In this document: one piece after another, positions 22,508 to 62,644 of the stretch
Layout: every line of letters begins with the position of its first letter
Position numbering within the stretch: the stretch's first letter is position 1
Origin: Azolla caroliniana
Taxonomy: Eukaryota; Plantae; Polypodiophyta
Assembly (NCBI GenBank): GCA_043228905.1
Contig: JBHGNT010000017.1
Location: forward strand, 9,982,001 to 10,046,000
Direction: 5' to 3'
Length of the DNA stretch: 64,000 bases
Program-made: the position numbers and the translations under genes
The notes under the pieces: generated by a model
Told to the model about the DNA's origin: nothing
The model's database searches: none
Seen by the model: the letters and a program-made list of their open reading frames with translations, nothing else

Positions 22508-24502
22508 ATGGGTTCGGATGCAGGTAATGGCGGTGGTGTTCCAAGGAATACATGGAGTGATGAAGATCTACTCATGATAAAGCACCTATTGGGCCCTTCT
22601 GCCATAGCTCAGCTCTCATGGAGTTTGCAAGGTTTAACACCTGTAGGGGGAAGGAGACTGAATGAAATAGCTCTTCAGCAGAGGCTCCATAACCTCGTTG
22701 AAGGATCAGCCGTAAATTGGACGTATGCTATCTTCTGGCAACTCTCAAGCTCGGCAAAAGGGGAAGAGGTACTGGGCTGGGGGGATGGTTACTTCAAAGG
22801 TCCTAGAGAGAAGCAAGAAAAGCCAAAAGATGAAGATCAAGGAGGAGGCCCAGGAGAAGAAAAAGGTTTCCATCATTCTATGACAGTTGATGAACGCCTA
22901 AAACGACGAGTCCTTCGCCTCTTACAAACCCAATTCTGTGCAGCGAGTGACGGTGACCTTATGGACATCGCGGAAGGAGACTTTGTTTCTGACACAGAGC
23001 TCTTCTACTTGATCTCTATGTTTTATTCTTTCTCGCGGGGTATGGACGTTCCAGGATTGGCCTTAGAGTCACAAAACCATGTCTGGTTGACTGGGAACAA
23101 CCTCGATAACTCTTCGGTCTGTACCCGATCTTCGATTGTGAGGATGGCTGGGATTCAAACCATCGTTTGTGTCCCGACTCTGAATGGCGTGGCCGAGCTC
23201 GGATCCACCGATCTTATCTTCGAGAACCGTAAACTCATCCATGAGATTAAGGTCTCATTTACAGAAGATGTTTGGGAGAAGCCACAATTAGACGAAACCC
23301 GCCACAGTCATAATAATCACAATCTTTCCTTGGTTAAGGAAGAGGCTTCGGTGTCACCTCCAGAGAGCCCAATTGTTACATTAATGCTCAATTCAGGGAA
23401 GCAAGAGAGTATAAGATCAAGTGTAACTCCAGATCGAGATCAACATTTTCATGGAAGCATGCTGACCACCAAAATTCCTGACCTAAGATCATCGCTCCCA
23501 CTTGCGCCCAATTTTCCGTTGAACCCGTTTTTGGCTGCCCAAAGGGCAGCAGCAGCCAAAGTCTTCCAAGCTCACGGATGGCAACAAAAGCAATCTTTTC
23601 CAGCGAACAACCCACCTGGTTCAGAAATCGCTCATGGAGGAACAAACCACCGCGTGAGCCCAAATGGCACGAATTTGAGCACCAAAATAGGTGGACATCT
23701 GTTCTTTCACAAGAGCGATCCGTCTCCGCAGTACTTGCCCAAATCGGACATGAATGGGCAGATGATCCGGCAGAAGGAACCAACAGTCCAGATGCACTCG
23801 TCGTCAAAAAACGGGGGAGAGAACACCAAGCAACAGTATGAGGGTCTTTCACTTAATAGCAGCATGCCGGCTAGTAGGCCATCATGTATTGTAGAATCGG
23901 AACATTCACAGCATTCAGATTTAGAAGCATCATGCAAGGACACTCTGGAAGAAATGAGGCCTCGAAAGAGGGGACGCAAGCCGGCGAATGGTCGGGAAGA
24001 GCCTTTGAACCACGTAGAGGCCGAAAGGCAAAGGAGAGAGAAACTAAACCAACGGTTTTATGCATTGAGATCGGTGGTCCCCAATATCTCCAAGATGGAT
24101 AAGGCATCTCTTCTCGGGGATGCAGTTTCATACATTCAAGAACTCCAAGGGAAGCTTAGAGAGATGGAGCAAGAGAGAGAAGAGCTTTTACTGGCTAGTG
24201 GCATTGACATAATGGAGATTAGGAAAGATCGGGTTCGTAACTTTTCGGCTAATTCTAGAGGTGCCCCAACAATTGACTTACAAATTCATAATGGTGAGGC
24301 TACAATACAAGTGACTTGTTCTAGGGAATCACACCCTCTCAATAAGGTTATTGAGGGTTTGAAGGAGCTAAACGTTGAGTTCCCGACTGCCAATGTGGCT
24401 CTTGTCGATGAATCATTCCTTCACACATTTAAGCTCGATGTGAAGAGCTCTAGCAACATCACCCAAGATTTGCTACATTCGGTTCTGACGAAAGGCCTAT
24501 GA
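22508..24502 (+). CDS. MYC2: MYC2-like bHLH transcription factor (subgroup IIId/e), 664 aa, intronless
   Basis: bHLH-MYC_N/JID ([45 protein letters not shown]); b[57 protein letters not shown]; ACT-like C-terminus. Symbol is family-level; orthology untested. Confidence 0.93.
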
Positions 24503-27520: not shown

Positions 27521-29255
27521 GCTCACGTGAGATCTTGCAAAATGGACAAACCAGTTGTATTGCAAAATCCTTCTTTAATAATATTATCATTGGAATTGTG
27601 TTTGTTTATTTAGTATTCTTTCTGTTCTTGTTACGTATCTTGAGCATGTAAAGAATCTACTCTCACTGGAATTGTGTTTGTTTATCGTTGGAATTGTGTT
27701 TGGGCAAGACTCTTACTCTCAGCCACATTGCCAAATATATCCTCATTCGTTGCAACGTCATCTCGACCAGACACATCATGCATGTGAGTTATGAACATTA
27801 TGAACACAAAATATTCCGCAACAAAAATACATTGTTATCTCAATATTCATCATAGAGTTCCATGATTACATGATGGGGATCAAGCAACAAACAATAATGG
27901 TTTTACTTGTCCAAACATAACTTATACATTAATTTTTGCAAGGAAAAATAGTTGCATATCTATTCCACTAAACATTGTGTCCCTAGCCCCTCGACCGAGT
28001 AACTGGTCTTGTCCTTGATCGAGCCCACATCTTCAGCCTTTTTCTAGATGGTTGCCCATTTTGCCTCAAGTGCTTCTTTCACCCATTAAGTGTGTCCTCC
28101 TCCGACAACCTATCCATCGCCTCCTCCGATCACGCGTCACCAACTTCTTGAGCTAACGGTTCAAGAAGAATGGGATTTGTTGTGACACCATCAGGTTTTG
28201 GGCTCAGTGGGGTTGATTTAAGGTTTTGGGACTCGAAGAATTGTTGTATCAAGTGTTCAAAAACACTGTTATTATGCACCTCAAATTTACATGTTGGGAC
28301 TATTTCATTATTCTTCATAGACATGCCCAATTAACTACAATCTTCCACAAGAATAGGGTGACGCTGAACTGAAGGAGATATTTGGGCAGGTCTCTTACTC
28401 TCAGCCACATTGCCAAATATATCCTCATCCATTGTGTTAAGAATTAGGTAATTAACTATGGGTTAATTGGTACCTAATTATGTGATTAAGCAACGAAAGA
28501 TTATGTGATGTGTGTGTGTATGTATGTGAGAGTGAGAGGGAGAGAGAAAGAACACTTATGAATAACGAGGCAAGATGGGTGATGATTAACTATATTAAAA
28601 AGCATCATCAAATACAAAAATACCCACAATGAGGTATATATAGATCTCATGTGCAAAGGTGCACATGTGTGAGTAGAATATAGGTACAAACCTATAAGTC
28701 CTATAAATGAACATGGGAGTGGAGGATCTACAATGTATTTCACTCAAGCTCAAAATCCTACTTAAGGCTTTGTTACCGATTAGGAAGACGGTCTTCGGTC
28801 AGTCCTTCGACCTAGACCTCCAAGTGATTGTGGAACAACGAATGGGGCGTCTATGCGTAATGCGTAGGGGAATGCTCCCCGTAACCTATCAGCGTATAAG
28901 GGGGACGGCTACAACCGACTCCTTAGCAATGGTTACACTTACGTTCTTAGACACTCAGATATTCTAGACACACAGTAAATTAGCCGTAGCTATACGCAGA
29001 CTTTCAGAGAAGATAGAATTCTATTACGATACGCTTCTTTACATTCCAAAAATACACGCTCCCTCTATCAGAGGTTTTTTGCCCTTTATATACGCAGGGT
29101 CTATTTAGCTGTTCACGCTTCTTGCGTGAACTGTTACATGCGTTATGATCTTATATTATTTCCTATTCCTACGATCTTGTCCGTCGGTTACTATTCCGGC
29201 GGACAACACCTGGCACGCCTGTGGGACAGTGCCCTAGCACGCCGGACCCATCCAG

Positions 29256-32154
29256 TTAATCTTCTTCCAAAATGGCCCGGATGTTTGGCTCTGCTACGGT
29301 GTCCGCGTCTGGAGGTGACGTAGGGCCCGTAGGTGCATCGTGGTCTGGCTCCCCTGTTTGGTCGGAATGGTTTCTCCTGGTGTTGCAGGTGTCGTGTGGG
29401 GGCAGTCTGGGTTCGGTGGGCTCTTGTTGAGCTGGCGGGTTGGGCTCCGCCGTCGTCGTGCTTGCGGTCGACCGCGGCTCTGTCTCAATCGTTACTTCCT
29501 CCATGGTGTCGGCTGTCTTTGTACGTTCCGGGGAGTGGGGTTGCGATTCCGCCTGGCCCGCACCGTTCTCCGTGTGGTCCGATGATAGCGTGGGCTCCTG
29601 CGGATGGAGCTCCTCTTGGGCAGCGGTTTCGCTGTTTGGTACTGTGGGGGACTCCGCTCGTCGGTCCGCGCTGTTTACCGTCGTTGTAATTTCTGGTGAT
29701 CTGGCATGAGGTTCCTCTTCTTCGACCGTGCCCGGAATTGGCGTCGCGCTGGATTCCTCATTTGTTCGCGTGTTGCCGGCTTGTGTGATCTGGTGAAATA
29801 GCTCCTCCTAGCTTTCACCAAAATCATCCAAGAGTTGCGCGAGTTCTTCGAAATGTTGGTCCGCTAGCGCATGATAGTCTTGCGCTAGGTCCTCGCGTAC
29901 AGCCGCAATGCTCTCCTCATTTAGTTTATTGAAACCTCGACTGCCCTTTTGCCGGTTCTCCCAGTCCGCACGATACGTGTGCAATTCCGTTGCTTGGGTT
30001 GCCCACGCCATCCATCCTTTGTCCAACGCCGTTTTCAATTGCGCTGTGAACCTCTCCCGATTTGTTTGGGGAAGGATACGCACGTTGTCTGTGATGGCCT
30101 GGCAACGGTTGCATGCGTCCTCCATCGACTTCTGGAGGTTTGCAATTTCTTGCTGCCTAACCGCCACCGCTTCTTCGTATGTGGCCTTCAGGCCCGCCCA
30201 TAGCTAGGATTCCTTTGCGTGTTGTTCTTCTAATTTCCCCATTTCATTGTTTAGGCGGATTTCGAGCTGATGCCTTCTTTCCTGTTCGACCACCAGCTGC
30301 TCATCGAACCATACCTTCCTTTTCTCTAATAAGGCCTGGAGTCCCGCAATTGCCGCCTCCGATTTCTTCGCCTCATCCCATTATTGGGCGTTTTCGTCTT
30401 TTGTCCAGATGTGCTGAGCTACCTCCGTAACGAGTTTCTCTTCAAGGGTTTTTACTGCCTTCTGGCCGTTAGCCCAGATCTCCTTTTCTTTGTCTGAGGA
30501 TTGGCGCAGTTCAGCTCGAAGGCGGTCAATTTATGATTCCCCTAGCTGCACGACCCTTTTCTTCCTTCAAAGCGTCGATGGCGTAGTTTGGTGGCAGGGT
30601 TGCGTGTTGCGCCGTAGTCACGTTAGCTTCCAACTCCGCGATACGTTCGTTGGCTTTTTGCAGCTCGGCTTGGGTCATTTTCACCTTCTTCCAGACATTC
30701 TTATTTTTAATGGCCATCTCCTTGGTGCTCGTGCTGACTTTTGCCAGTTACCTATGGACTTCGACTAGGGCTGTGTTTAGTGGGGGTAGCTCCATCCCCA
30801 CTCGGCGTACCCCGGCATTCCTCTGTCTACCAACCCTGGCTAGCCAGTCCTCATCGTCGCTCTCCGCCGTTTGTGTTAGGGCGCGCTCGATCACCTGGCG
30901 CTCCGCGTGCTCCTCATCCATTCGTTGGAAGGCTTTTATCTGTTGTGTTGCCATGAATTCCATGAGCTCAAAAGAGGTTCCGAACTGTAAGAGGGCGCTG
31001 AACTCATGGGCCGTATCCGGGATATCTGGATATGCCAAAACCTCGCTTTCTGCCGTCAATATGGCTTTCCCTCGTTGGGACTGGGTCAATACGGCTTTCC
31101 CTCTGTAGCTGCGGAGCCATCGCCTTTGGTCGTTGTCTCTGCCGCCGTAGGAATGTCTTTGACCAATCCTCGCCCATCTTTCCTGTCCAATCTACGCTGT
31201 TTCGGTCTAGGGCTAACCTACCGTGTTTCGGTGTCTGGCTATGGGGCTGCTTCCACGGAACGTGCCAGCCGTTCCTCCTGCGTTGTCCGTGTGTCTGGTT
31301 GGGCAGGTTGGGGTTCCTCTTCCCACTCTAGGCTGCTATAACTCCGCTAACCTGCGCTTCGCGGATTGAGGCGGGGGCGTGGGTCGGCTGGGCTGCGGTG
31401 CAGGCAGGCCTCGGGATGGGAATAGTACCGTAAGGTACTGTTGTATGATCGGCCAAAGCTTTTTTCCGGCCTGATACGCATGCAGACCTTCCCTTAACGC
31501 TGGCCCTGTGATGACCCCCCAATCGACCGCACGCCCTTCAAAGGTATCGATAATGATGCCCGCCTTCTGTTTGGGCATCCCATATGCGTTGACATGTACG
31601 CAACTGACCTCTAACAGGAACTTGGCAACTTCACGGAAGAAGGGATCCGGGATCTGCTTCGTTCTATAGGCCTTGGCGGAGGAGGAATAGGGCCTGAAAT
31701 ATCGCTGCAGCGCCTCTGCAGGAGGGATTTCGAAATGCCTTTCGCCTAGAGATGACAAGTCCAACTTTTTCCAGATGGAAGAGTTGGTGACCGTGTCGAT
31801 GTTAAGCTTCCTGGCGATGTCTATGGCATCCGAGTGTGGGGGTGCCTCTGCGACCCGGATGTACCCATCCAAGCGTTTCTCCATGAGCCATCGGCGTAAG
31901 GCAGTAGAGATGAAGATCGGCATCGCTAGAGTAGGTTCGTGGGAAGGAGACTGGTGGTTGCGGTGGGCTGGAGCTCTGTGATAGGATGGAGGAGAAGGCG
32001 AGGGGGAGGAGCGATGGGAGCACTGATAGTTAGAGGGTGGGTTTCTGTTTTGTGCAGAAGATCTTCTATTTCCTTCTTTTTGTGGCTTAGGGTTCATTGG
32101 GCGGTGAGCCATCGTGGTGCCGCGTGTTCTTGAACTAGGAGTCTGTGCATGCAT
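29256..32154 (-). pseudogene. Accessory ORF region between integrase and 3' LTR (sense orientation)
   Basis: ORF pieces 31336-32154, 30748-31089, 30526-30717, 29808-30167 and 29256-29504; globular part (..GRAVDWG..) then coiled-coil-like and Pro/Thr-rich parts. Confidence 0.6.
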
Positions 32155-32299: not shown

Positions 32300-34953
32300 C
32301 GGTGAATGGGTTAGGTGGCGTATATCCCAGGTAAGGTTTAAGGCGAAACCCATTCACCTTTTGCCGTACTACTTCCCGGCCAGCGTACCTAGTTGGAACG
32401 TGCCTTGCTCCGCTCCAATTATCCAGTATGGGCCGGTCTAGTGGAATCGTAACTTCCCTGGCATATGGCCCATGCGGGTTTGGAAAACCAGCACCGCTCG
32501 ACCGACGGCGAACTCCTTTTCCCTTGCGTTCCGATGTCGATCCACAAACGCTTTACGCTGTCGCTGTTCCTGCTCCAACACAGCCATGCTGTGTACTGTT
32601 GTTCCTCGAGTTCGAGTAGCTGGTGGAGCCATAGCTCCTCCGACTGGGCTTCCGAAAGTCGGTCCCATACCTGAATCCGCAAACTGGGTACCTGAAATTC
32701 GACCGGCATCACAGCCTCCAGCCCAAACGCTAGTCGAAACGGTGTTGACTGTATGCTTGTTTTGTAGCTGGTTCTGTACGCCCATAACACACTCTGTAAT
32801 TTGGTATCCCAGTCCGTTCTATTTTCATTGACGATTTTCTTCAAGATGGTCTGCAACGTCTTGTTAGTGGATTCCGCTAACCCATTCGCCTGTGGATAAT
32901 ATGGCGTACTCTTCTTATGGACTACAGCGTAATGATGTGTTAGTTCCCGAACCACCGGATTGAGAAAGTGACTCCCCTGGTCATTGATGAGCTCAATCGG
33001 GCAGCCGAACTAGCACCAGATGTGCTCGTAAAGGAATCTGGTTGTGACGGCCGCCGTATTTTCTCGTAGTGCCTTTGCTTCTACCCACTTGGTGCAATAA
33101 TCCGTAGCTACCAATATGTATTTATTGCCCGTACGGGCTGCCGCCGGTGTGAAGGGGCCCACAAAATCCAATCCCCACTTTTGGAAGGGGTCTAGCGGCA
33201 ATATGGGCCCATCCGTTGACACAAATCACACTTTCTACAATACTCGGATGCGTCCTTCTGCGTTGTTGGCCACCATAAGCCCGCTTGCCATATTTTCTGG
33301 GTTGTAACGTCGCCCGCGTAATGGCCGCCTGCCGTGCCGCAGTGCGCCTCCGTAAAATTGCTTCTTTCTCATCCTAACGTACCCCACGTCGCCAAATGCC
33401 GTCACTTCCTTTGTGAGATATAAAACTCCTTCTACGAGGCAGAAGTGACGGCTTCGGACGACTAGTCATTTCTTCTCATCCGTGCGTAATTGCGGTGGAG
33501 GCAGTCCCGTAGTCAAAAAGTATGTCATTTCCATAAGCTACCGGTCCGGAAAGGTCGATTCCGTTCTTTCTGCTAGTACTGCTACCCGCAGGATGTCGGC
33601 ATCCAATAAATCGTCGTCATCTTTCTATATTGTTTCTCCATTCTCGAGTTTGCTCAAAAAATCTGCCACTGCGTGTTGCGTCCCTGGTCGGTGCTTGATT
33701 ACGAAATCGAATTCTTGAAGCAGCAACATCCATCGCGCCAATTTCCTCGTCAGGGCTTGTTTCTCCACCAAATACAACACTGCCGAATGATCCACGTGGA
33801 ACGTGAACTTCCTCCCTAGTAAATAGTGCCGGAATTTATTGATGCTATAGATCATCCCTAGCGCCTCCCGCTTCGTTGTGGTATAATTACGCTCTGCTGT
33901 TGATAATTTGCGACTAGCATAGTACACTGGCCGGTACCAGTTTGGTTCGGTGAGCTGCATTAGCGCACTCCCTATTGCTATGTCCGAGGCGTCGACCAAT
34001 ACGTGGAATGGCTTCGCCCAAACTGGTGGTTGTACGACGGGAGCCTGTGTGAGCATTATCTTAAGTGCCTCATAGGCCTTGTCCTCCGTTGCGGTCCATT
34101 GGAAGGGAGTCTGATGTACGACAGCATGTAACAGCATGGCGAAGTCCGCCAAATATCGTATCATCCGACTATGCCACTATATTTGTCCTAAAAACTGACC
34201 AAGTGATTTTGCGTTTGTCGGAGTTTTGGCTTGCGTAATCGCAGAGATCTTGTTCGGATCGACCGCTATTCCCTCCTTGCTGACTATGTGGCCCAGGAGA
34301 GTCCCGCTGGTCACGCCAAAAGCATATTTCGCGGGATTCAGGCTTAAGCATGTGGTGCGACAACGTTCCAGGCACAGTTGCATGTGCGTAAAATGGTCTA
34401 TTGTTCTCCCATATATTGCAAAGTCGTCTAAGAAAACTTGCATGAACGCTGGAATGTATTCCCCAAAGATCTCCGTAATTGTCCGTTGAAATGTTGCCGG
34501 CGCCATCTTTAGCCCGAACATCATGACGACTGCCACATAGACTCCCCAGTCCGTGACAAATGCCGTCTTTTCTTGGTCCTTAGGATGCATGTGTACCTGG
34601 TTATACCCATTGAAGCCATCTAAAAAACTGTACATCCCATGTCTTGCGACGACGTCTAGTACGCTATCGGTGAAGGGTAAAGGGAATGCGTCCGTAATGG
34701 TTACAACGTTTAATTTTCGGTAATCCACGCATACCCATATTTTGCCGTTTTTCTTTGGAACGACCACTATCGGGCTTAACCATGTGGCTTGTTTAACGGG
34801 CCGTATGAACCCTGCCTTCAGGAGTTTGTCAATTTCTTCTTTTACGCGGGTCGCGTAGTTCGGGTTCATGCGGTAACGGCGCTGCTGGACAGGTTTTGTG
34901 TCGGTTGCTAAATTGATCTTATGCTGATAGAACTTGGGATCTAACCCCTTCAT
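32300..34953 (-). pseudogene. Gypsy pol (RT, RNaseH, integrase)
   Basis: PVQQRRYRMNP..WLSPIVVVPKKNG..VDYRKLN..FLDDF; VDASDIAIG..YYASRKL..ERNY; WGLDFVGP; YYPQANGLAESTNK. Confidence 0.92.
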
Positions 34954-34954
34954 G

Positions 34955-38800: not shown

Positions 38801-39080
38801 TTATACTAATATGACTTTTCGGCTATTTACAAATATAGCCTCGATGGACTCTCAAAAACATATTTACGAATATGTCCCTTCATCCGGTGAGCACTCATCA
38901 CCGGGCCTGCATCATCCGGCGGTTGCCAGGCACACGTCATCCGGTTCTCACCGGGTCTTCTGTTGCCGGGCACTCCACATCCGGTTCTCACCGGGTCTTC
39001 CGTAGCCGGGTACTTGTCATCCGTTTGCTCATCGACACTGTTCTTCTCACTTCCCATCCGGAGGGACTTGTTTCCTAACA
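35863..39080 (-). mobile_element. Copia family B 5' half (LTR 38427-39080, PBS, gag, protease, integrase)
   Basis: PBS tagtatcagagc at 38412-38423; MDESLGGMFKLTGSNY; CFYCGKPGHFQKNC; WVVDSGASFH; LNGLAERMNRT. Confidence 0.9.
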
Positions 39081-42000
39081 CTTCCAAGGGTGATGAGGGT
39101 GATCTATTTATCACGTACATCATTGTCATTATCGCCTCAGCCCAAAACGTCTTGGGCAGCTTAGCATGTACCAACATGCTCCAGACTCTCTCCATGATGG
39201 TGGTTTCGAATGGAAAGAGGTTTGGTTCTGCTTGCCAGCTAATCAATCAATTGACTTCTCAAGATGCACGTCTTTCACCTCAGGAATGAGGTTATCATCA
39301 GCCAATTATCCCATCCCCTTCTAGCTCATGTGGCATAACCTCTTGTGCCACAACTCACCAGCATTCTCGGATGCCACATTCACTTTGGGCATATTCGGGC
39401 ATGCATCAGGTACAACATGTTCTGAGCTCGAGCCCCGATCAGCTTTCCTTTGCAGAACTTGATGACTCCGTTCCAGATGCTACCCATGTAGCCTTCATCA
39501 TCTAGCTGACTGGCTGATATCAAGTTCAACCGAACCTTCGGAATGTGTCGGACATCTCTTAGCACCAACTTGCACCCAATTCTCGTTGTCAACCACACGT
39601 CTCCCATGCCAGCAATTTGGCATGCACCTTCATTTCCCATTTGGATAGAACCGTGGTCTCCGACACTGTGCGATGAGAAGCACTTCCGGTCGGGGGTAAG
39701 ATGGAACGACGCTCCGGAGTCGACTGCTCATGTCAACTCGTCGCAGACAAGATGAAGCTCACTCTCCTTGGTGATCAGCAACAGTTCTTTCTCACTTGTC
39801 CTGATTGCCAATGTTCCTCTTCTTTCTGACATCTTCTTCGGTTACGGAATGTCGGTTCCCCTTTGGCTTTTCGGAAGTGTCGGTAATTCTTTTGGAAGTG
39901 CCCCGCTTTCCGCAATAAAAGCAAGTGGGCTTCCCCCTCAACTTCGACCTCGTCCCCGATTTGTCCCAGTTTTGCGGACTCCGATTCCGACCTCTTCCCC
40001 GGTTGTGTTCGTCTTTTGTAACCAAGGCCTTCGGATCGGTTTCAAACTCCCAGTCCTTCCGGCGGGCTTCTTCATCCAACAAGCTTGATTTTACCCTTGT
40101 TGGGGATAGATGTTTTCCTTCCGGCCCAACGTTGCCTAAAGTGACAACTAACGTCTCCCAACTATTTGGGAGGGAACCGAGCAGGAGCAATGCGGTACGT
40201 GGTCGGTTAGAGGTACTTCCAATGAGGTTGTTTGATTTATGAGCCCTTGGAAGCATTCATGTGCTCCATCATGCTGGATCCGTCTTGGTACCAGAATCTC
40301 ACTAACTTCTGGAATACCAAAACCCAATTTACGGTGTTCTTGCCCTCCAACATGGTACTTATTTTCTCCCAGAGCACATGTGCCTTACTTTCTTCATTAA
40401 AGTTGTTGTACAGTTTCATGTCGATGAACCACGGGATGTATGTCGTCACCTTAATATGCATCACCTCCCACGTCATGGCATCAATGTTGTCCGGTTTCTT
40501 GTCCCTGAACTGTACCGGCAACCAGAGATCTTTAACCATGAGTTGGTCCCTCATCTTCAACTTCCACATTGGGTAGTTGGAGACGGTGAGCTTGAACATG
40601 CTTCCAAATGATTTTTCCATTTTCTTCTTTCTTTGTTTGAAGTTTAGAACCTCTCTTTGATACTAGTTTGTGAGGATTGGTGCTCGACCATAGTCGAGCC
40701 TTAAACACCCAATGGAAAGAAGCGAGAAATAGATGTAAGATTAATGCACTTACTCAGTATGAGACGACACCCGTGTGTTTGTGTTGAAAACCCTAATATG
40801 GAGAAAAAAAATCGCGGGAGCCCATAGACTCCAACCATCACTATGAGAAGAAAGGTTACAACAAGAGACTTAGAGGCAACGACCTCGAGCTATATACCTT
40901 CGCCAACCAGTGGTTACAACAGAAAAACTTATGTATCTCTCACACTATAATACGACGATAACAACTATGACCTCTCACACTATACAATGATTACCGTAAG
41001 TCATATTTATACTTATATGACTTTCGGGATTGTAGAAGGAGCTAATGACACACAGAGACTTCCCGTCGTGGGAGCAATCGGCGAGCAGGGTATTATACTG
41101 CTTCGCGTCGTGTGTGGGCGAACAGCTATTGAGCTATGTTCGGGATGCAAAGACGCCGAAGGGTGCGTGGGAAAATCTAAAGAAGATTTTCGCTGCGAGC
41201 AGCACAGCCAGGAAGCTTCAGCTTCGACAAGAGTTGAGCAACCTACGACAACGCGACTTGTTGGTGGCGGACTATACCTCAAAGATCAAGGATATCTGCG
41301 ACTCCCTCGCCTCCATAGAGGTGAACACCGAGGAGAGCAAAATGGTCCAGATCTGTCTCGGAGGTTTGGCGTTGAAGTTCAGAGCGTTCCGAATGGCTGT
41401 GTGTACCCAGGAGAATATGCCGTGCTTTTTCGACTTACAGTCAATGCTCCTGGTAGAGGAGAACCACGCGGGTGCGTCTACAAGCACGCACGCCGACAAT
41501 AGAATGTTGTACACGGAGGGAGATAGGCCCCGTGGACGTGGAGGACGAGGCGAGTCGGCGCGCAATGGAGGCGGCCGACGAGATCAAAGAACAAGGCACC
41601 GAAGTGATGCCGACAGCAACTCTGGACCCTCCGGAAACAGGGGGAGTCGAAGCGATGAGAACCGGCAAGGGAAGGCCACCGCGGAGTGCTGGTACTGTGG
41701 CAAGAAAGGCCACATGGAAAGTGAGTGCTGGAAGAAGCGCGCCGATTCGGAGAGAACCGGTTCCGGAAACGGCTCCGGACATACCGACAAGGGAAATCGG
41801 CAGCGATCGCACTACGCCGAAGACTCCGGGAGAGCCGGAGAAGGGTCCGCCTTCGTGACGAGACACGAAGCAAACTCAATAAAATAGACCACCCCGAGAT
41901 CGGACGAGGTGTGGTACGTAGACTCCGGTGCGTCAAACCACATGACGAGCCATAGTGGAGTGGTTCTCGTACCTTGAAAAACCGGTACAACCTGGAGTAG

Positions 42001-45000
42001 TCGCAACTGGAGACGACACATCGCATCCGATCGCGAATGTCGGAGAAGTTCCCCTTAGCCATGTCGGGCAGAAAGGGAAACTCATGAACGTGCTGCACGT
42101 TCAGACAATCACAAAAAACTTGGTCTCGATCGGACAGATCGTCGACCAAGGGATGGAGGTTCGGTTACACACCTCGGGTGCTTCATTGAAGAAGAAGGCC
42201 GTGTGATTGCGCAAGAGCGCAGAGATGGGAGGATGTTCATCCTCGACTCCACTGACGGTGGCACCGCAATGTTCGCGAAGGGACAAAAATCCAAGTTGGA
42301 CATTGATTTGTGGCACAAGCAAATAGGCCACGTCAACCACCAGCGGCTTCAAGATCTGCAATCGAAACAGGTAGTGTTCGGATTGCTCAAATTTAGTGGT
42401 CGAAAGGCACAAATTTGTGAAGCTTGCCAGCTCGGGAAGCAACACTGACTTCCCTTCCCCAACGAGCGAAACCGGAGCCGGAACAAGCTCGATCTTATAC
42501 ACTCCGATGTATGGGGGCCGACACAAAACGTTAGTCTTGGCGGGAGCCGATATTTCGTCTCCTTCATCGACGACCACACGCGGCACACATGGATCTACCT
42601 CATTGAGAGGAAGAGCGAAGTCTTCGACTGTTTCCGAGACCTCAAAGGGTTCGTGGAAATAGAAACGGGATGAAAGATCAAGTGCCTGCGGTCGGATGGC
42701 AGGAAAGAGTACTTTTCCGGTCAATTCAACGGTTACCTACAACAAATGGGAATTCGCCGCGAATTCAGTTGTAGATACATGCCAGAGTAGAACGGCGTGG
42801 CCGAGAGGAAGAATCGGTCAGTTGTGGAAGCGGCACGGGCAATGCTGGAGGAGAAGAGCTTGCCCAAGTTCTACTGGGCCGAGGTGGTAAGGACCGCGGT
42901 ATACATCCAGAACCGGATCGGAGACAAAGTGTCGGCGCACGAGCTATATTTCGGAACGAAGCCGAACTTGCGACACTTGAGGGTGTTCGGTAGCATTGCG
43001 TATGTGCATGTACCGAAGGAGAAAAGGAGGAAGCTGGACGCAAAGGCCGAGAAAGGCATCTTGGTCGGTTACTCGGACGAGCAGAAGGGTTATAAGTGCT
43101 ATAACCCTTGCACCAAACAAGCGCGTGTCAGCCGCGACGTTGTGTTTGACGAGTCCGCGTCCTGGTACCTGGCCTCGACTCCGAACCCTGCCCCCAATCC
43201 GTGTTCTGACGATGAGGTCAGCAAGGCCGAGATGCCTCCGGATGAGCCCGAAATCGAGACCCACGAAGAGAGTCCGATTTCACTCCGGTTAAGTGGACCG
43301 ATTGGACGACTGAGTCGGTACGACCAGTCCGATGAAGAGCCGGCGAGTAGTGGAGACTCGGCCGTGCATTCCCCGCGCAGGAAGCCGAGGAGACGGCTTA
43401 CACGCAAAGAGAAAGGGAAGAAGAGGGTGTCGGATTTCGGCCCGGATAGCAACGAGTCAGACCGACGCGAGTCCGACTCCGAGGGAACCGGTGAAAGTCT
43501 TTAAAAGTGAAGTCCGCGTCGACCGAGAAGGCCTCAACATCGGCTAATGTGAGATTACGCCGATCTACCCATCAGAAGAATCCTGTTTTGCAGTTCGGAT
43601 ACAACGAGTACATGGCGCATCATTATGCGTACATGACCCGTGTAGCGGAAGTGCGTGAGCCGGAGAGCTACGCAGAAGCGGCTAAAGACGCGAATTGGCG
43701 TGCCGCGATGGAGGAAGAGATGCACGCATTGGCAAAGAACGAGACCTGGGACCTGATTGACACACCAAGAGGGGTAAAACCGATCGGGTGTAGATGGGTG
43801 TACAAGGTCAAGTACAACACCGATGGCTCGGTCAACCGGTACAAGGCTCGGCCAGTTGCAAAGGGCTACGCGCAGAAACACGGCATCGACTACGATGAGA
43901 CATTTGCGCCGGTCGCGAAAATGACGACCGTTCGTGTTTTGCTCGCAGTAGCCACGACCAAGGGGTGGCACCTACATCAAATGGATGTAAAGAATGCGTT
44001 CCTGCAAGGTGACCCTGAGGAACAAGTGTACATGGTACAACCCCCCGGATTGTAGTTAGTCGGCTACACCGATGCTGATTGGGTTGGCAATTCCGCCGAT
44101 CACCGATCCACGTCTGGATACGCGTTCTCCCTCGGGAGTGCCGCGATCACGTGGAGCAGTAGGAAGCAGCCGACAGTTGCACTCTCGAGCACCGAAGCTG
44201 AGTACCGAGGAGCGGCTGCCGTGACATGCGAAGCCATATGGTTGAAGCGACTTCTTAAGGATCTGCAAGAGGAGGTGTAAGATCCGATGACGATCTACTG
44301 CGACAACCTCAGCAACATCCAGCTCGCGAAGAACCCCGTTTTCCACGCACGGACCAAGCACATTGAGGTGCACTACCAATTCGTACATGAGCGTGTCCTT
44401 TCCGGTGAAGTCGAACTTCAGTACGTTTCGACGGATCGGCAGACTGTCGACATCTTCACCAAGCCTCTTGGTCTGGACAAGTTGCGGAAATTCTGAGGTG
44501 CGCTCGGATTGCGTCACCTCGACGTGCCGAACTTGAGGGGGAGAACAGTCCCGAACGACCAAGCAAGGCAGCAGGAAAGGAGTGGAGACCGCGACACCGA
44601 GTCGGTTGTCGAGTTCGACTTCGGATCGACTGAAGAAGCCGAGGACGGACCCGCGGAGAAGTCCGGAAGCGGACAAAAGGGGAGCAGCCGAAGGAGAGAG
44701 CCGAAGCCAACCACGCATGGGGAAGATGACGCCACCAAGGGCGAGAAGACCGAAGACGAGTTGGAGACAGCCAACTCGAACGAGAGCGAAAACCGATCGG
44801 AGGTTAGCGAGTCGGTTCGGATGTTTGATTCAGATACGCTGAATCAACCAAGGCCCAAGTGGAAGAAAAGGTAGCAGGAGAAGCGTCAACACCGCAACAG
44901 CAGAAGAGCTGATAAGGGCCACATGAGCAGAAAAGCCGACCGGAAGGGTCGAAGCGCGCGGAGTCGAACAGGTCGAGGAGCGCGAGCGAGGCGTAAAGCC

Positions 45001-45589: not shown

Positions 45590-48500
45590 CAAGGAAAGGC
45601 TACGACAGATTGTTGGTACTATGGCCGAAAGGGTCACAGGGGTGGAGCGAGTGCTAGAGAAAGAGGGCAGATTCAAGGAAGAATGAGTGAGCCGAGGCAA
45701 TGCAGATAAGAATTGCCGCAACTTGTCCAGACCAAGAGGCTTGGTGAAGATGTCGGCAGTCTGCCGATCCATTGAAACGTACTGAAGTTCGACTTCACCG
45801 GAAAGGACACGCTCAAGGACAAAATGGTAGTGCACCTCAATGTGCTTGGTCCGTGTGTGGAAAACGGGGTTTTTCCCGAGCTGGATGCTGTTGAGGTTGT
45901 CGCAGTAGATTGTCCTTGGATCGGACACCTCCACCTGCAGATCCTTAAGTAGCCGCTTCAACCATATGGCTTCGCATGTCGCGACAGCCGCTCTTCGGTA
46001 CTCAGCTTCGGTGCTCAACAGTGCAACTGTCGGCTGCTTCTTACTGCTCCATGCGATCGCGATACTCCCGAGGGAGAACGCGTATCTGAACGTGGATCGG
46101 CGATCGGCGGCATTGCCAGCCCAATCAACATCGGTGTAGCCGACTAACTGCGCGGTTGCACCGGTCCGATATAGCAGTCCCCGGTCCTTAGTGTCGTTGA
46201 CATACCGAAGTATGCGTTGCACACACTGGCGGTGCTCCTCGGTAGGTCGCGCCATGAACTGACTGATCACTCCGACCAGATAACTGAGGTCGGGTCGGGT
46301 GATTATCAAGTATATGAGGCTTCCGACAATTTGTTGGAACCTCGTCGGGTTGCATTCCTTTCCTGTATCGGGACGAAGCTTGACGGTTCTGTCCAGAGGA
46401 GTCGAGACGGACTTACAGTCGGCCATCCCGAATTTGAAGAGCATACTCAACACGTAATGATGTTGGCTGATCAATATGCCTTCGGGGATACGGATCACTT
46501 CGATCCCGAGGAAGTAATGAAGGTCCCCCAGATCCTTCATGTCGAACGATGCCGCAAGCTGGAGCTTCACGTGGTCGATTTCACCTAGGTCGGCGCCGGT
46601 GATGACCAAGTCATCAACATATAGGAAAATACTAACCGGTCCGAGTCGACCTTTCCGGATGAACAGGGAAGAGTCCGATTTTGTCGTGACGAAGCCCATC
46701 CGACGCAGTTGTTGCGTGATCTTCGCGTTCCAGGCACGCGGGGCTTGCTTCAGTCCGTAAAGGGACTTCTTCAGTCGGCATACTTCTGAGGAGTTCGTTC
46801 CAGAATGAAATCCGGGGGGCTGTACAATGTACACCTATTCCTCAAGGTCACCTTGTAGGAACGCATTCTTTACATCCATCTGATGTAAGTGCCACCCCTT
46901 CACCACAGCTACTGCGAGCAAAACACGGACGATCGTCATTTTCGCGACCGGCGCAAATGTCTGATCGTAGTCGATGCCGTGTTTCTGCGCGTAGCCCTTT
47001 GCCACTAGCCGAGCCTTGTACCGGTTGATCGAGCCATCGGTGTTGTACTTGACCTTGTACACCCACCTACACCCGATCGGTTTTACCCCTCTTGTTGCGT
47101 CAACCAGGTCCCAGGTCTCGTTCTCCGCCAATGCGTGCATCTCTTCCTCCATCGCGGCACGCCAATTCGCGTCTTTAGCCGCTTCTGCGTAGCTCTCCGG
47201 CTCACGGTCTTCCGCTACACGGGTCATGTACGCATAATGATGCGCCATGTACTCGTTGTATCCGAACCGCAAAACAGGATTCTTCTGGCGGGTAGATCGG
47301 CGTAATCTCACATTAGCCGATGTTGAGGCCTTCTCGGTCAATGCGGTCTTCACCTTTAAAGACCCGTCACCAGTTCCCTCGGAGTCGGACTCGCGTCGGT
47401 CTGACTCGTTCTTATCCGTGCCGGAATCTGACACCTTCTTCTTCCCTTTCTCTTTGCGCGTAAGCCGTCTCCTCGGCTTCCTGCGCGGGGAATGCACGAC
47501 CGAGTTTCCACTACTCGCCGGCTCTTCATCAGACTGATTGTACCGACTCAGTCATCCAATCGGTCCACTTAAGCGGAGTGAAATCGGACTCTCTTCGCGG
47601 GTCTTGATTTCGGGCTCATCCGGAGGCATCTCGGCCTCGTTGACCTCATCGTCAGAACACGGATTGGAGCCGGGGTTCGGAGTCGGGGGCTGGCACCAGG
47701 ACGCGGACTTGTCAACCACAACGTCACGGCTAACACGCGCTTGTTTGGTGCGAGGGTTATAGCACTTATAACCCTTCTGCTCGTCCGAGTAACCGACCAA
47801 GATGCATTTCTCGGCCTTTGCGTCCAGCTTCCTCCTTTTCTCCTTCGGTACATGCACATACGCAATGCTACCGAACACCCTCAAGTGTAGCAAGTTCGGC
47901 TTCGTTCCGAAATACAGCTCGTGTGCCGACACTTTGTCTCCGATCCGGTTCTGGATGTATACTGCGGTCCTTACTGCCTCGGCCCAGTAGAACTTGGGCA
48001 AGCTCTTCTCCTCCAACATTGCCCGTGCCGCTTCCACAACTGACTGATTCTTCCTCTCGGCCACGCCGTTCTGCTCTGGCGTGTATCTACAACTGAATTC
48101 ACGCTGAATTCCCATTTGTTGTAGATAACCGTTGAATTGACCGGAAAAGTACTCTTTCCCGCCATCCAACCGCAGGCACTTGATCTTTCGTCCCGTTTCC
48201 GTTTCCACGAACCCTTTGAAGTCCCGGAAACAGTCGAAGACTTTGCTCTTCCTCTCAATGAGGTAGATCCACGTGTGCCACGTGTGGTTGTCGATGAAGG
48301 AGACGAAATATCGGCTCCCGCCAAGACTAACGTTTTGTGCCGGCCCCCACACATCGGAGTGTATAAGGGCGAGCTTGTTCCGGCTCCGGTTTCGCTCGTT
48401 TGGGAAAGGAAGTCGGTGTTGCTTCCCGAGCTGGCAGGCTTCACAAATTTGTGCCTTTCGGCCACTAAATTTGGGCAATCCGAACACTACCTATTTCGTT

Positions 48501-51500
48501 TGTAGATCTTGAAGCCGCTGGTAGTTGACGTGGCCTATCTGCTTGTGCCACAAGTCGATGTCCAACTCGGATTTTTGTCCTTTCGCGAACATTGCGGTGC
48601 CACCGTCAGTGGAGTCGAGGATGAACATCCTCCTGTCTCTGCGCCCTTGCGCAATCACATGGCCTTCTTCCTCAATGAAGCACCCAAGGTGTGTAAACCG
48701 AACCTCCATCCCTTGGTGGACGATCTGTCCGACCGAGACCAAGTTCTTCGTGATTGTCGGAATGTGCAGCATGTTCACGAGTTTCCCTTTCTGCTCAACA
48801 TGGGTAAGGGGAACTTCTCCGACATTCGCGATCGGATGCGGAGTGTCGTCTCCAGTTGCAACTACTCCAGGTTGTATTGGTTTTTCAAGGTACGAGAACC
48901 ACTCCTTATGGCTCGTCATGTGGTTTGACGCTCTGGAGTCTACGTACCACACCTCGTCCGATCTCGGGGTGGTCTATTTTATTGAGTTTGCTTCGTGTCT
49001 TGTCACGAAGGCAGACCCTTCTCCGGCTCTCCCGGAGTCTTCGGCGTAGTGTGATCGTTGCCGATTTCCCTTGTCGGTATGTCCGTAGCCGTTTTCGGAA
49101 CCGGTTCTCTCCGAATCGGCGCGCTTCTTCCAGCACTCACTTTCCCTGTGGCCTTTCTTGCCACAGTACCAACACTCCGCGATGGCCATCCCTTGCCGGT
49201 TCTCATCGCTTCGACTCCCCCTGTTTCCGGAGGGTCCGGAGTAGCTGTCGGCATCACTTCGGTGCCTTGTTCTTTGATCTCGTCGGCCACCTCCATTGCG
49301 CGCCGACTCGCCTCGTCCTCCACGTCCACGGGGCCTATCTCCCTCTGTGTACAACATTCTGCTGTCGGTGTGCGTGCTTGTAGACGCACCCGCGTGGTTC
49401 CCCTCTGCCAGGAGCATTGACTGTAAGTCGAAAAAGGATGGCGTATTCTCTCGGGTACACACAACCGTTTGGAACGCTCCGAACTTTGACGCCAAACCTC
49501 TGAGACAAATCTAGACCATCTCGCTCTCCTCGATGTTCACCTCTATGGAGGCGAGGGAGTCGCAGATATCCTTGATCTTTGAGGTATAGTCAGCCACCGA
49601 CAAGTCGCGTTGTCGTAGGTTGCTCAACTCCTGTCGGAGCTGAAGCTTCCTGGCTGTGGTGCTCGCGGCAGAAATCTTCTTCAGATTTTCCCACGCACCC
49701 TTCGGCGTCTTTGCATCCCGAACATAGCTCAATAGTTGTTCGCCCACACACGACACGAAGCAGTATAATACCCTGCTCGCCGATTGCTCCCACGACGGGA
49801 AGTCTCTGTGTGTTGATTCGGGTGCCGCGTCATTAGCTCCTTCGACATAACTCCAGTAGCCGTGCCCGAGCAGGTACTGGTGCATCTTGTAGGACCAAGA
49901 CGCGTAGTTGGTTCTGTCGAGCTTCTCTGTTGGATGCGAGCTCGCCATGCCTCTATCCATCGTTGTTCTTGTTCTTCTTCGTCAAGCTGTGTCGGCTGCA
50001 GAGAGGTTCTCAACCCTCGCGCTCTGATACCATGTGAAAAGTAACGTGCGGAAGCAAGTGTGAAGACCGAACAGGAGGAAGAAAACTCAGGTTCAATGGA
50101 GAGCTTGAGCTTATGCAGTATATGCGAGAGAGACAGAGAGAGTGAGAGAGAGAGAGAGAGAAAACACACGAACTATATTGAACAACAACAACAATCTCTA
50201 TTCACCACACTCTGTACATATGTGTGTTCAATGAACACTTTTATACAAGTCCTAGAAGGACGGACCTAAGTATTGACAATACTTCAATACTCATTAAGAG
50301 CTCCTACACTAACTCCCAAATATATTCCTCACGGAATATCTTTCCTATTGGCCTCCCGGTTTACGCACTCGGCCTAACCGATCGGTCCCAACCGATCCGG
50401 TCCTCGGCTTCTTCAACCGATCCGGCTGATGTTGAGCTTGTCTCTCAACAAATGGGCCCAGTTCTTTTAATGAAGTATAAAACCAATCGAATGGGAGTTC
50501 GTAACTCTAAGCTAGAGGAGTTGTGGTATGTGGATTTTGGAGCTTCGAACCACATGAAGAACAATGCAAAATGGTTCTCCTTTTCCATGGAGAAGACGGA
50601 GTAGCCAGGAGTTGTCGAAACCGGTGACAACACCGTGCATCCCATCAAGCATGTGGGTGATGTACCGTTTAGTCATGTTGTACAGAAAGGACTTATGCAG
50701 AATGTGCTGCATGTCCCTACGATTGCAAAGAATTTAGTTTTTGTTGGACAAACCATTGATCAGGGAAGGCAAATACGGTTTAGTGACCATTGCTACTTCA
50801 TTGAGGATGAGGGCTGACTGTTGGTGCATGGGCGTAAAGACGGGAGGATGTTTGTCTTCGAGACAAATGATGTTGGTACTGCATTGTTTGCAAGTGTACA
50901 GAAGGTTGAATCCAACATTAACCTGTGGCACAAGAGGGTCGACCACATCAACTATTCGAAGTTTTAAGAGTTGCAGTAGAAACAGGTGGTAGTCGGACCA
51001 CAACGGTTCATTGGTTGGAAAGGCCAGGTATGTGAACCTTGCTAGCTTGAGAAGCAACATAGGCTTCCATTCCCCAATGAGAAGAATCAGAGCTGGAATC
51101 GGCTCGATCTATTCCACATGGATGCATGGGGATCGGCACAATGTGTGAGCATAAGGAGGGGGGGGGGATACTTCGTCTCTGTCATCGACGATTTTAGCTG
51201 TCACACTTAGGTCTACCTGATTGAGAAGAAGAGTGAAGTCTTCTCATGTTTTTGGGATCGAAAGAGCCTTGTCAAATAGGAAACTAGGAAGAAGATCAAA
51301 TGTTTGAGATCGGATGGTGGAAAAGAATACTTTTCCGGCCAGTTCAAGAGTTATCTACAGAAAAAGGGAATTCGGAGGGAGTTCTCCTATAGATACTTGC
51401 CAGAGTAGAATGGCCTAACCGAATGACGGAACCAGAAGATGATAAAAGTTGTTTGGGCAATGCTGGAAGGGAAGAGCATGCCCAAGTTCTACTAGGCTGA

Positions 51501-55599: not shown

Positions 55600-55770
55600 G
55601 CATTGTATAGAGCTTACACCAAACAACAACTCACATTGAGTTTGCCCTAGGTCATATTTATACTAATATGACTTTCGGGCTATTTACAAATATAGCCCTA
55701 GTGGGCTCTCTGGAACATATTTACATATATGTCCCTTCCATCCGATGAGAGGTTCTCACCGGGCCTGCAA

Positions 55771-55980
55771 CATCCGGTTCTCACCGGCTCTTCCGTTGTC
55801 GGGTACTCCACATTCGGTTCTCACCGGGTCTTCCGTTGCCGGTTACGCCACATCCGGTTCTCACCGTGTCTTCCATTGCCGGGTACGCCACATCCGGTTC
55901 TTACCGGGTCTTCTGTTGCCGGGTACACCACATCTGGTTCTCACCGGGTCTTCCGTTGCCGGGTATGCCACATCCGGATT
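55771..55980. repeat. 40-bp tandem repeat in Copia B LTR (also 60842-61050)
   Basis: Unit catccggttctcaccgggtcttccgttgccgggtacgcca, about 5 copies. Confidence 0.9.
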
Positions 55981-58315
55981 CTTCTCACGGTTCTTCTCAC
56001 TTCCCATCCAGAGGGACCTATTTCCTAACAAACTCCCCCTTCACTCCGGCATGGGATGTCTTACTAGTCCGATCCGCTTCTGACATGCATCCAACTTGTC
56101 GGGCATCAGTACTTTGGTCAGCATATCTGACCCGTCCTCGGCCGTGTGGATCTTCGTCAGCGCGAACTCTTGATCTTCTACTCGCTCCCGGATCCAGTGA
56201 TACCTACGTTGGATGTGCTTCGTCCTAGAATGGTACACTGCGTTCTTAGCAAGGTGGATGACACTTTGACTGTCGCAATAGAGCCGATATTCATCTTGCC
56301 GGATACCGAGCTCTCCGATGAAGTCCTTCATCCATAATATTTCCTTGCCGGCTTCAATAGCCGCCATGTACTCCACCCTCCGCCTCCGTGGTTGACAATG
56401 CTACCGTCTTCTGCAGCCTCGACTGCCACGAAACAGCTCCCCTAGCATATGTCATTACATACCCGGATGTAGTCCGGTTGGTATCCACATCAGCCGACAT
56501 ATGCGAATCGGTAAAAATGTCAAGTTGAGTTTTACCGAAGCCAAATTGGAGACACATATTCAAAGTGCCCTTCAAGTACCGGAGTATCCATTTGACCGCG
56601 TTCCAGTGCTCCTTGCCGGGATTGCTCATAAATCGGCTCACCACTCCGACTGCGTCACCAATATCCGGTCGATTACACACCATTGTGTACATTAAGCTCC
56701 CGACGGCAGAGGCATATGGCACCTTCATCATATCCGCCTTCTCTGCTTTCGTCTTCGGGCTTTGCTTACCAGATAATCTGCAGTTTGCCGGAAGTGTCGG
56801 TCTGACCGGTTTCGCGTCTAACATGTTGAACCACTGAAGCACCTTTGTCACGTACTTCTCCTGTGACAACCATAATTGCTTCTTTGGCCGGTCCCGGATG
56901 ATATACATCCCCAGCATCTGTCTTGCCAGACCCAAGTCTTTCATTGCGAAAGTTCGGTTGAGAGCCTTCTTCAGCATCCGTATTTTGGCTTGGTCCCGTC
57001 CGACGATCAACATGTCGTCCACGTACAGAAGGAGTATCAGGAAGTTGCCTCCTTCGAAATTCTTCACAAACACGGAGTGATCGGCTTGCGTCTTGTGGTA
57101 CCCTTGATTGGTCATGAAGGAGTCGAACTTCCGGTACCATTGTCGGGGAGCTTGCTTCAGTCCGTACATGCTCTTCTTCAACCAGCAAACCAGGTGCTCT
57201 TTCCCTTTCTCCATGAATCCTTCCGGTTGCTGCATGTTGATCTCCTCTTCGAGGTCACTGTGAAGGAATGCCGTCTTCACGTCCAGCTGCTCTACCTCAA
57301 GGTCCATGCTTGCCGCTATACTTAGCACCGTCCGGATGGAGGTCATCTTTACTACCGCGGCAAATATCTCGTCGAAGACCACACCCTTCTTCTGTTGGAA
57401 CCCCTTCACCACGATCCTGGCTTTGTATCTCGGGGGGTTGCCGGCATCTCCCTATTCATCTTGTACACCCACTTGTTTCGGAGTGCCCGCTTTCCTTTCA
57501 GCAACTCCACCAATTCGTACGTATGGTTCTGATGCAGGGAATCCATCTCATCCTGCATGGCACTTAACTATTTGCGGCTATGGGCGTCACTTTTGGCTTC
57601 CTCGAAGCTTTCTAGCTCCCCCTCATCGGTTAGCAACACATGTTTTGCATCTAGAAATCTCTGGGGGGGGGCTTCTCTCTCTGAGAGGATATCTCCGTAT
57701 TTGGCTTTCGGCAACCGGCTCCTCTATTTGTTCTTCATCCAAATCCGATTCGGGGTCTTGGCCGGTTCCGATTTCACCTATTCCTTCTTCTTTGGCCTGT
57801 CTTGTCTCGTTACCGTCACTGGCCGGTTCATCGAGTGCTAACCGGTCTCTTGATGGTTGGGTCTGCTCATCGTAGAATCGATCCTTACGGGTCGACTCAG
57901 AGTTCATTATCTTCTTCTCCGACTCCCAATCGGCGAGCGTCTTGTCCTCCATGAAGATAATATCTCGACTCCGGAATACCTTCTTGTCGGCCAGGTCCCT
58001 CACTCGGTAGCCGAACTCATCCTCGCCGTAACCGAGGAATATGCATGGCCGGGTCTTCGGATCTAATTTTCCTCTCCGGTCCTTAGCTACATGCACATAT
58101 GCAAGACACCCGAATACCTTCAGATGCCGGTAGGACACTTCCTTACCGGTCCAGACTCTCTGTGGCGTGTGTCCGTCCAAGGGTACTGAGGGTGATCTGT
58201 TTATCATATATTTCGCCGTTGACAGTGCCTCAGCCCAAAACTTCTTGGGTAGTTTTGCATGCGGTAGCATACTCTGGACCCTCTCCATTATGGTCCGGTT
58301 CATCCTCTCAGCTAG

Positions 58316-61504: not shown

Positions 61505-62025
61505 AACTCGATACTTGGTACCAAGTTGCTCCCCTTTTAGACCCCGTGTGGGCCCCAACTCGAACTCGATACCAAGTATCGAGTTGGGGTCTAAAGGGGG
61601 AGCAACTCGATACCAAGTATCCAGTTGGTATCGAGTTGTTCCCCCTTTAGACCCCAACTTGATACCAAGTATCGAGTTGCCACCCCTATGTATACAAACT
61701 CGATACTTGGTATCGAGTTGGGGACCATCTGGATACAAACTTGATATATGTGGAGCAACTCGATACCAAGTATCGAGTTTGTATACATATGGTCCGAAAC
61801 TTGATACCAAGTATCGAGTTTGTATACATATGGGCCCAAACTCGATACTTGGTATCGAGTTGGTACACATATTTGTACTAACTCTATTCTTGGTGTTCAG
61901 TTGGTACACATATGTGCCTCAACTCGATACTTGGTATCGAGTTCAAGCCCATATGTGGAGCAACTCGATACCAAGTATCGAATTTGTATACATATAGGCC
62001 CCAACTTGATACCACGTATCCAGTT
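61505..62025. repeat. Array of 23-bp palindromes separated by 18-bp spacers (41-bp period)
   Basis: aactcgatac-caa/ttg-gtatcgagtt, some copies degenerate, at 61505, 61563, 61604, 61656, 61697, 61757, 61798, 61839, 61880, 61921, 61962 and 62003. Confidence 0.9.
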
Positions 62026-62644
62026 GGTACACATATGTGCTACAATTTACATGTTTATTGTCTTATAATACTACATTGGGCATAAAAATCAAAGATTTTT
62101 AGCTTTAGGTTTTAGATGTTATTTTGGAAAATTTAAGCCAAATGCCCCCTAGTATTAGGCATACAAATAGCCTTATGAAGTCTTTCTACAACTATCAGGG
62201 CCCATTTCTTGAGTTTCCCTATTTTATTATGTGATTAGGTCTGCAGATCCTAAGGATGAGCACCCTAAGAAGATGATTCAACTAAAATTTCAAAGCTCTC
62301 CGATAGAAACCTCTAAAGTCCCCCCTCTCACGTTCACGCAGAAAGGGAATAAATTATTATTTGAAGATGACTTTGTTAGGCAACCATTTGACAAAGTGAG
62401 TCAGGAGAAGAGGGTGGCTCCTCATGGGGGTGAAACTCTGATTGATAGAGACATCATTGAACACGAGTGGGCCATGCAGTATGTTGACTCAAGTAAGAAG
62501 GTTGTACTCATAATGTCTCATAACAAAGGTCAAGGGGAGCTAGCCAAGGACCGACCCTTTGGTTATGGCTAAATATTGAGATTGGACTATGAAGACGCGG
62601 ACTCCAAAACCCTAGTGGTTCTAGTTTAATGCTCGAAGGGAGTT

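Follow-up and report, generated by a model that had tools for sequence, protein, structure and literature searches.

A Ty3/gypsy element of Azolla caroliniana with a tRNA-Arg(UCU) copy in place of the PPT, and the possible priming of plus-strand DNA by a host tRNA

Priming of plus-strand DNA from a PPT is presented as a general feature of retroviruses and of LTR retrotransposons in PMC12789967 and PMC5371799, and a PPT before the 3' LTR is presented as usual rather than universal in PMC6317226, where the wording is "most". The canonical replication scheme, as set out for yeast Ty3 and retroviruses in the relevant parts of PMC5371799 and PMC12789967, shares several features with that considered here, namely the order LTR-gag-pol-LTR, a tRNA at the 5' PBS, an RNA primer ending immediately before U3 and the copying of the tRNA as far as a modified base. 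It differs in that, canonically, a purine-rich segment of the element's own RNA acts as the plus-strand primer, whereas a tRNA copy occupies that position at the locus described below (PMC5371799, PMC12789967). In the HIV-1 primer activation signal, as described in PMC13191261, a second template segment likewise pairs with the T arm of the primer tRNA, but it does so on RNA, at the PBS for the minus strand, whereas the present site would act on DNA at the start of the plus strand. According to PMC5371799, the 3' part of the bipartite PBS of Ty3 is RNA when it pairs with the tRNA, and it is used for the minus strand. Here, the element RNA is identical to the tRNA and, therefore, only minus-strand DNA can pair with it. 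Hepadnavirus primer translocation is similar in that the plus strand is begun by an RNA annealing to minus-strand DNA, and not by a PPT left in place, although viral RNA supplies that primer and there are no LTRs and no integrase.

Among Ty3/gypsy lineages, and following the descriptions in PMC6317226, Athila elements resemble those studied here in having a 5-bp target duplication, no aRH and a region of extra ORFs after pol, but they differ in carrying a PBS for tRNA-Asp/Asn/Ala and a conserved PPT junction (PMC6317226; ATHILAfinder preprint). The Tat, Ogre and Retand elements share a tRNA-Arg PBS and a 5-bp target duplication, and Phygy is described as having a 4-bp NCGN target duplication, a tRNA-Trp PBS and no extra ORFs (PMC6317226). 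No description of a tRNA copy in the PPT position was found in the literature searched, the coverage of which excluded Repbase and most subscription journals.

The element was found in the window, the whole 64,000-nt stretch of A. caroliniana DNA that was analysed, with the following features:

28771..29208, minus strand: 3' LTR of 438 bp, TGT...ACA, with its U3 edge at 29208; the sole copy of the LTR within the window
29085-29092, minus strand: TATA-like box inside the 3' LTR
29209..29210, minus strand: spacer of 2 nt between CCA and the LTR, variable among families (GG, TG, AG, CG)
29211..29227, minus strand: 17 nt that reproduce tRNA-Arg(UCU) nt 59-76, CCA included but one base short, where a PPT would be expected
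29228..29241, minus strand: 14-nt insert with a 4-bp hairpin, interrupting the tRNA likeness between nt 58 and nt 59
29242..29251, minus strand: segment matching tRNA nt 49-58, the 5' strand and the loop of the T arm
29256..32154, minus strand: sense extra-ORF region from the integrase to the 3' LTR, fragmented in the window copy and with no Pfam match
32419..33009, minus strand: integrase core piece (Pfam, under the cut-off; above it in a sister copy)
33625..34176, minus strand: RNase H piece (Pfam)
34177..34954, minus strand: reverse transcriptase (RT) piece (Pfam); nested repeats cut the element at 34954

The window copy thus extends from the LTR to 34954, and its 5' half and second LTR are absent from the window. 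The initial annotation had placed a tRNA-like 17-mer at 29211-29227, two nucleotides from the LTR end, and the same letters and spacing were recovered on the plus strand. Its assignment of a minus-sense 3' LTR with a TATA on that strand also stands, given the TATA-like box and the minus orientation of the RT, RNase H and integrase pieces; LTR polarity was taken from the gag-pol order in complete copies. It had further considered the PPT to be missing, and no purine tract occurs in the 17 nt adjoining the 3' LTR, where sister copies carry the same motif instead; the best purine stretch among the 60 nt upstream of the LTR (9/10) lies at the far end, about 50 nt off. The tRNA likeness proved more extensive than the 17-mer first described, since it continues upstream into the T-arm segment, matching at 7/10 positions in the window copy and 8/10 in most family copies, beyond an insert that is shortened to 13 nt in most sister families. 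On minus-strand cDNA, 29211..29227 is a predicted tRNA-binding site. The sense extra ORFs downstream of the integrase extend over about 3 kb (29256-32154 in the window; also L085, L083 and L031) and show 36-90% identity between families, without Pfam matches.

Other repeats also occur in the window. At 62645-64000, on the plus strand, an LTR is followed by the other PBS type of the sister families (see below) and gag-like sequence, and this is probably a member of the same clade with its 3' end beyond the window. Palindromic 41-bp units form an array at 61504-62080, inverted 3-kb copies of another retroelement-like repeat, with 94% identity, lie at 41048-44051 and 46809-49813, and 40-bp tandem repeats occur within LTRs of a nested Copia-like family (38882-39026, 55746-56070 and 60826-61142). 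Amid nested repeats, 22508-24502 on the plus strand encodes a bHLH-MYC transcription factor in a 664-aa stop-to-stop frame, which an atlas search placed only in Streptophyta.

A genome search listed 1,830 candidates, of which 40 were scored and gave 41 matches. The tRNA motif was present at the same LTR edge in 30/30 family loci examined, 14 of them identical, 11 with one change and five with two to three, and ten of these copies were extended. A PBS for the same tRNA, four bases past the 5' LTR, was present in all five focal copies where the 5' junction was seen, and the arrangement that the initial annotation had suggested looking for in full-length copies, a normal PBS at the 5' LTR and a tRNA copy at the 3' LTR, was therefore found at 5/5 junctions. 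Both flanks were seen in four focal copies, three with perfect 5-bp target duplications and one with 4/5. Complete sister copies, with two direct LTRs, TG...CA ends and a target duplication, are represented by L031/L032, L040, L042 and L044, and the three LTR pairs measured show 93-97% identity. The element thus runs from one LTR through the PBS, gag-pol, the extra ORFs and the tRNA copy to the other LTR, and the domains gag, RT, RNase H and integrase are present and ordered as in Ty3/gypsy elements, while no protease domain was scored by Pfam in the sister-copy ORFs. The window LTR is confirmed as the 3' LTR of a Ty3/gypsy element carrying a tRNA-Arg(UCU) copy in place of the PPT. Two findings that would have undermined this reading had been foreseen by the initial annotation. 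One, a normal PPT in sister copies, fails because these carry the motif and no PPT. The other, a separate plus-strand element fused to an inverted interior, is ruled out because the complete copies have an LTR at either end, a normal PBS after the 5' one and target duplications of 5 bp.

Genes for the corresponding tRNA are present in the host. A tRNA pattern search of the genome gave 41 matches, and ARAGORN called tRNA-Arg(TCT) genes in 12/18 loci. Their 3' ends, with CCA added, match the 3' motif except that the element is short of one base; the tRNA-Arg(UCU) end given in the initial annotation thus agrees with real host genes, but the 1-nt deletion in the element had escaped it. CCA is absent from the host tRNA genes. 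One tRNA-Arg(TCT) variant matches the 5' PBS of the window family over 14 nt. In L068-L070 (C11), C22 and C4, tRNA-Arg(TCT) genes whose acceptor stems vary are arrayed in tandem; one variant fits the 5' PBS of the window family, and the tRNA of these arrays appears to be the same one that the elements use. Sister families carry a PBS for another tRNA, the gene for which gave no matches in the genome search and was not called by ARAGORN; this tRNA was seen as three read-through copies at PBSs.

The deleted motif, lacking the one base, followed by 2 nt and TGTT, occurs as 1,892 exact matches in the 523-Mb genome, against none for the reversed control, and chance is thereby discounted. Among the loci collected, 59 distinct sites, falling into 16 LTR clusters, retain the motif while spacer and flanks differ. 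It lies downstream of pol, in the same sense, in the extended loci L228, L229, L231-L233, L235, L236 and L238; in this orientation check L234 was rearranged, and L226, L227 and L230 carried no pol match. Beyond the genome, a metagenome contig (L146) carries motif, LTR, PBS and the start of gag in order, close relatives among the best 80 of 495 matches of the metagenome scan were too short to span to the 3' LTR, and viral contigs gave one distant match. Sequence runs of two other organisms showed deep cover within 28700-29500 solely at the LTR edge and motif, a signal that carries no reading of orientation to pol. Elements of other lineages have purine runs ahead of the 3' LTR (L170, L201 and L220), and nested elements with such runs occur in L226 and L227. 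A short element, some 2.5 kb long (L277:6742-9440), shows no pol match between its 5' PBS and the 3' tRNA site and is likely to be a non-autonomous derivative that keeps both sites.

Conservation of this kind could also reflect a role other than priming. The motif might bring the RNA ends together by pairing with the 5' PBS, take part in packaging or act as a decoy for tRNA fragments, with the plus strand starting from a cryptic purine run. The motif is complementary to the 5' PBS in the window's family, and the 9/10 purine stretch about 50 nt upstream would be a candidate start. However, sister families with another PBS tRNA keep the same 3' motif and, therefore, end-to-end pairing is not the conserved feature. 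Moreover, the purine stretch does not adjoin the LTR, its region differs among families, and the in-register tRNA copies at U3, considered below, would be left unexplained; we regard a non-priming role as very unlikely.

In an RT-RH tree of 66 rows, the motif-bearing elements constitute one 100/100 clade of 16 rows, which is separate from the rows of Athila and Ogre type and lies close to liverwort and fern sequences, the deeper forks being weakly supported. L236, L231, L233 and L085 were left out of the tree because their RT-RH alignments were broken. The Athila-type rows, labelled by PBS motif from the text of the ATHILAfinder preprint and not by REXdb references, form a separate 100/100 clade, and L220 and L201, with an Ogre-type PBS or purine run, fall in another. 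No second RNase H (aRH) was detected in the gag-to-RH and RH-to-integrase ORFs of sister copies, the post-integrase stretch being covered via the extra ORFs only, and PF13456 is absent from the closest homologues. There was no chromodomain match in the integrase-bearing ORF or the extra ORFs, and the elements were not assigned to the chromoviruses. The "Tat-type" label of the initial annotation has to be abandoned, and with it membership of TatI-III, Ogre or Retand, given the absence of aRH and the position of the Ogre-type rows in another clade. Athila was rejected on its separate clade and on the PBS, which is for tRNA-Arg(UCU) or a second tRNA and not for tRNA-Asp/Asn/Ala. Phygy is set apart by its description in PMC6317226, since the present elements have 5-bp duplications, a tRNA-Arg PBS and extra ORFs.

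The site itself shows signs of a conserved structure. Over 20 sequences picked to cover the clusters, 95% of the cells of the insert hairpin are paired and 12 cells are changed on both sides, and none of 500 shuffles reached as high a covariation while slid controls were 30-47% paired; these statistics are inflated by relatedness and refer to a structure drawn from the same sequences. When the tRNA is folded with the 45-nt site, a three-way junction is predicted. As a partner of the tRNA, the site outranks all the others among 1,141 windows taken along the minus strand of the element when RNA energies are used as a proxy for RNA:DNA. In the sense RNA, helix 1 is 76% paired and the T-stem and the same hairpin are also foldable.

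Copies of the tRNA were also found outside the 5' LTR of some elements of sister families. Searched genome-wide with 2 nt and TGTT after it, the undeleted tRNA end gives nine matches, and of 33 matches to a wider undeleted-end pattern 30 were examined: nine, at six loci, lie at a U3 edge, 12 at sister-family 5' PBSs (seven placed by LTR orientation and five by a shared spacer), four are inner sites carrying an additional A, one of them resembling a variant in the C22 tRNA-like array, and five received no assignment. Both element ends were read in three of the U3-edge elements. The first, L270/L236, consists of a partial U3, an exact 18-nt tRNA end, spacer, 5' LTR, a PBS for the other tRNA, gag-pol and a deleted inner site, with a 4/5 target duplication. 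The second, L238/L273, has three tandem 5' LTRs with two exact 18-mers between them, a degenerate inner site and a perfect 5-bp duplication. In L277 a longer tRNA copy with one change precedes the 5' LTR, which is followed by the other-tRNA PBS, and the inner site is deleted. The footprint is thus exactly 18 nt in two of the three (L270/L236 and L238/L273), and a stop at 18 nt is known from HIV-1 as the m1A58 stop (PMC8599865; PMC13191261). L247-L249, which represent one event, carry 57 nt identical to a host tRNA gene plus CCA. As CCA is not present in the tRNA genes, the footprints were copied from mature tRNA. An exact tRNA sequence outside the 5' LTR is what copying of an unremoved plus-strand tRNA primer would leave. 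The footprints are rare, occurring at six loci compared with 1,892 sites, and a genome pattern with the spacer and LTR start of the window's own family found none.

Two further kinds of site with tRNA sequence were observed. In L074, L075, L079, L261 and L263 an undeleted tRNA end is followed by a G-rich, hairpin-forming stretch. In L084, L086 and L088, and also L287-L289, tRNA read-through at the 5' PBS is followed by a jump to internal sequence, generating deletion derivatives, and in L084 the read-through reaches a near-complete tRNA.

An alternative explanation for the site is that the element's own tRNA-like RNA resists RNase H and primes as a non-purine PPT, with host tRNA entering solely in rare template switches. 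The position is identical to that of a PPT, the sense RNA is able to form the T-stem and the hairpin, and L252 carries a chimeric footprint mixing tRNA and element bases, from which it follows that template switching occurs. However, the outer copies have the host tRNA sequence and not that of the element, even where another tRNA is at the PBS. The deleted motif without its usual upstream bases gave three matches, all inner sites, and among them no outer copy, in a test that sees only copies losing two upstream bases. Nor does a self-primer need identity to one tRNA that includes the CCA, and we consider this explanation unlikely.

The initial annotation had also raised the possibility that an antisense transcript is the copied genome. 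In this scheme full-length antisense RNA, or RNA of both polarities, would be reverse transcribed and the 3' site would be an ordinary PBS, although the second strand would still need a tRNA at the other end. The symmetry of the priming sites fits such a scheme, which also predicts tRNA outside the 5' LTR. The two sites nevertheless behave differently. Among the first 100 of 337 5' PBSs, 11 extend to the tRNA 18-mer in a hand count, and the others carry AA (64), AG (14), GG (9) or GA (2) at two positions that vary among host tRNAs; the PBS pattern permitted only purines there, and part of the variation may be mutation. Long tRNA read-throughs are also present at the 5' PBS. The inner 3' site, which should also be rewritten if antisense RNA were copied, keeps its deletion, with 1,892 matches against nine undeleted ones, none of the nine with an intact hairpin upstream. 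As Ty1 and Ty3 do not rewrite their PBS, according to PMC5371799, the argument rests on this contrast within the element: the 5' PBS is rewritten from tRNA whereas the inner site is not, and antisense RNA is disfavoured. TATA-like boxes in the LTRs inspected are also in pol sense, and we consider an antisense genome very unlikely.

The reading that we prefer, and hold to be quite probable, is that host tRNA-Arg(UCU) anneals to exposed minus-strand DNA and that the plus strand is started from its CCA end, two bases ahead of U3. The minus strand would be primed as usual, by a tRNA at the 5' PBS, and, after clearance of the RNA by RNase H, the site would be exposed as single-stranded DNA. The tRNA could then pair through nt 59-76 with one bulge, the DNA hairpin looping out opposite A58, and through nt 49-58 beyond it. 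RT would extend the CCA end across the 2-nt spacer into U3-R-U5. The primer would normally be removed and, if it were kept, the minus strand would copy the tRNA to about A58, placing tRNA sequence outside the 5' LTR. Plus-strand priming by a tRNA, as suggested in the initial annotation, gains support from sister families in which an exact copy of the tRNA is joined to the U3 edge, although this support is at the level of sequence and the footprints could also come from a template switch onto the tRNA from another primer. A tRNA:DNA hybrid is expected to be a substrate for RNase H, and the fixed bulge is a candidate for its escape. Host tRNA would then be likely to start both DNA strands. For the group as a whole, we consider it probable that an entire non-seed-plant Ty3/gypsy clade lacks a PPT and that host tRNAs, often two different ones, prime both strands by means of a structured DNA site (an 18-nt arm with a bulge, a hairpin at A58 and a T-arm anchor) that loads tRNA-Arg(UCU) on single-stranded cDNA.

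If this is correct, these would be LTR retroelements in which no part of their own RNA serves as a primer, and a clade with a tRNA in the place of the PPT would imply an RT able to load a folded tRNA on DNA. Such a high-copy clade would show that primer selection by RNase H can be bypassed, and its replication would have a second control point, through tRNA supply, modification or tRNA fragments. Tools that score the PPT would, moreover, misread or flip such elements.
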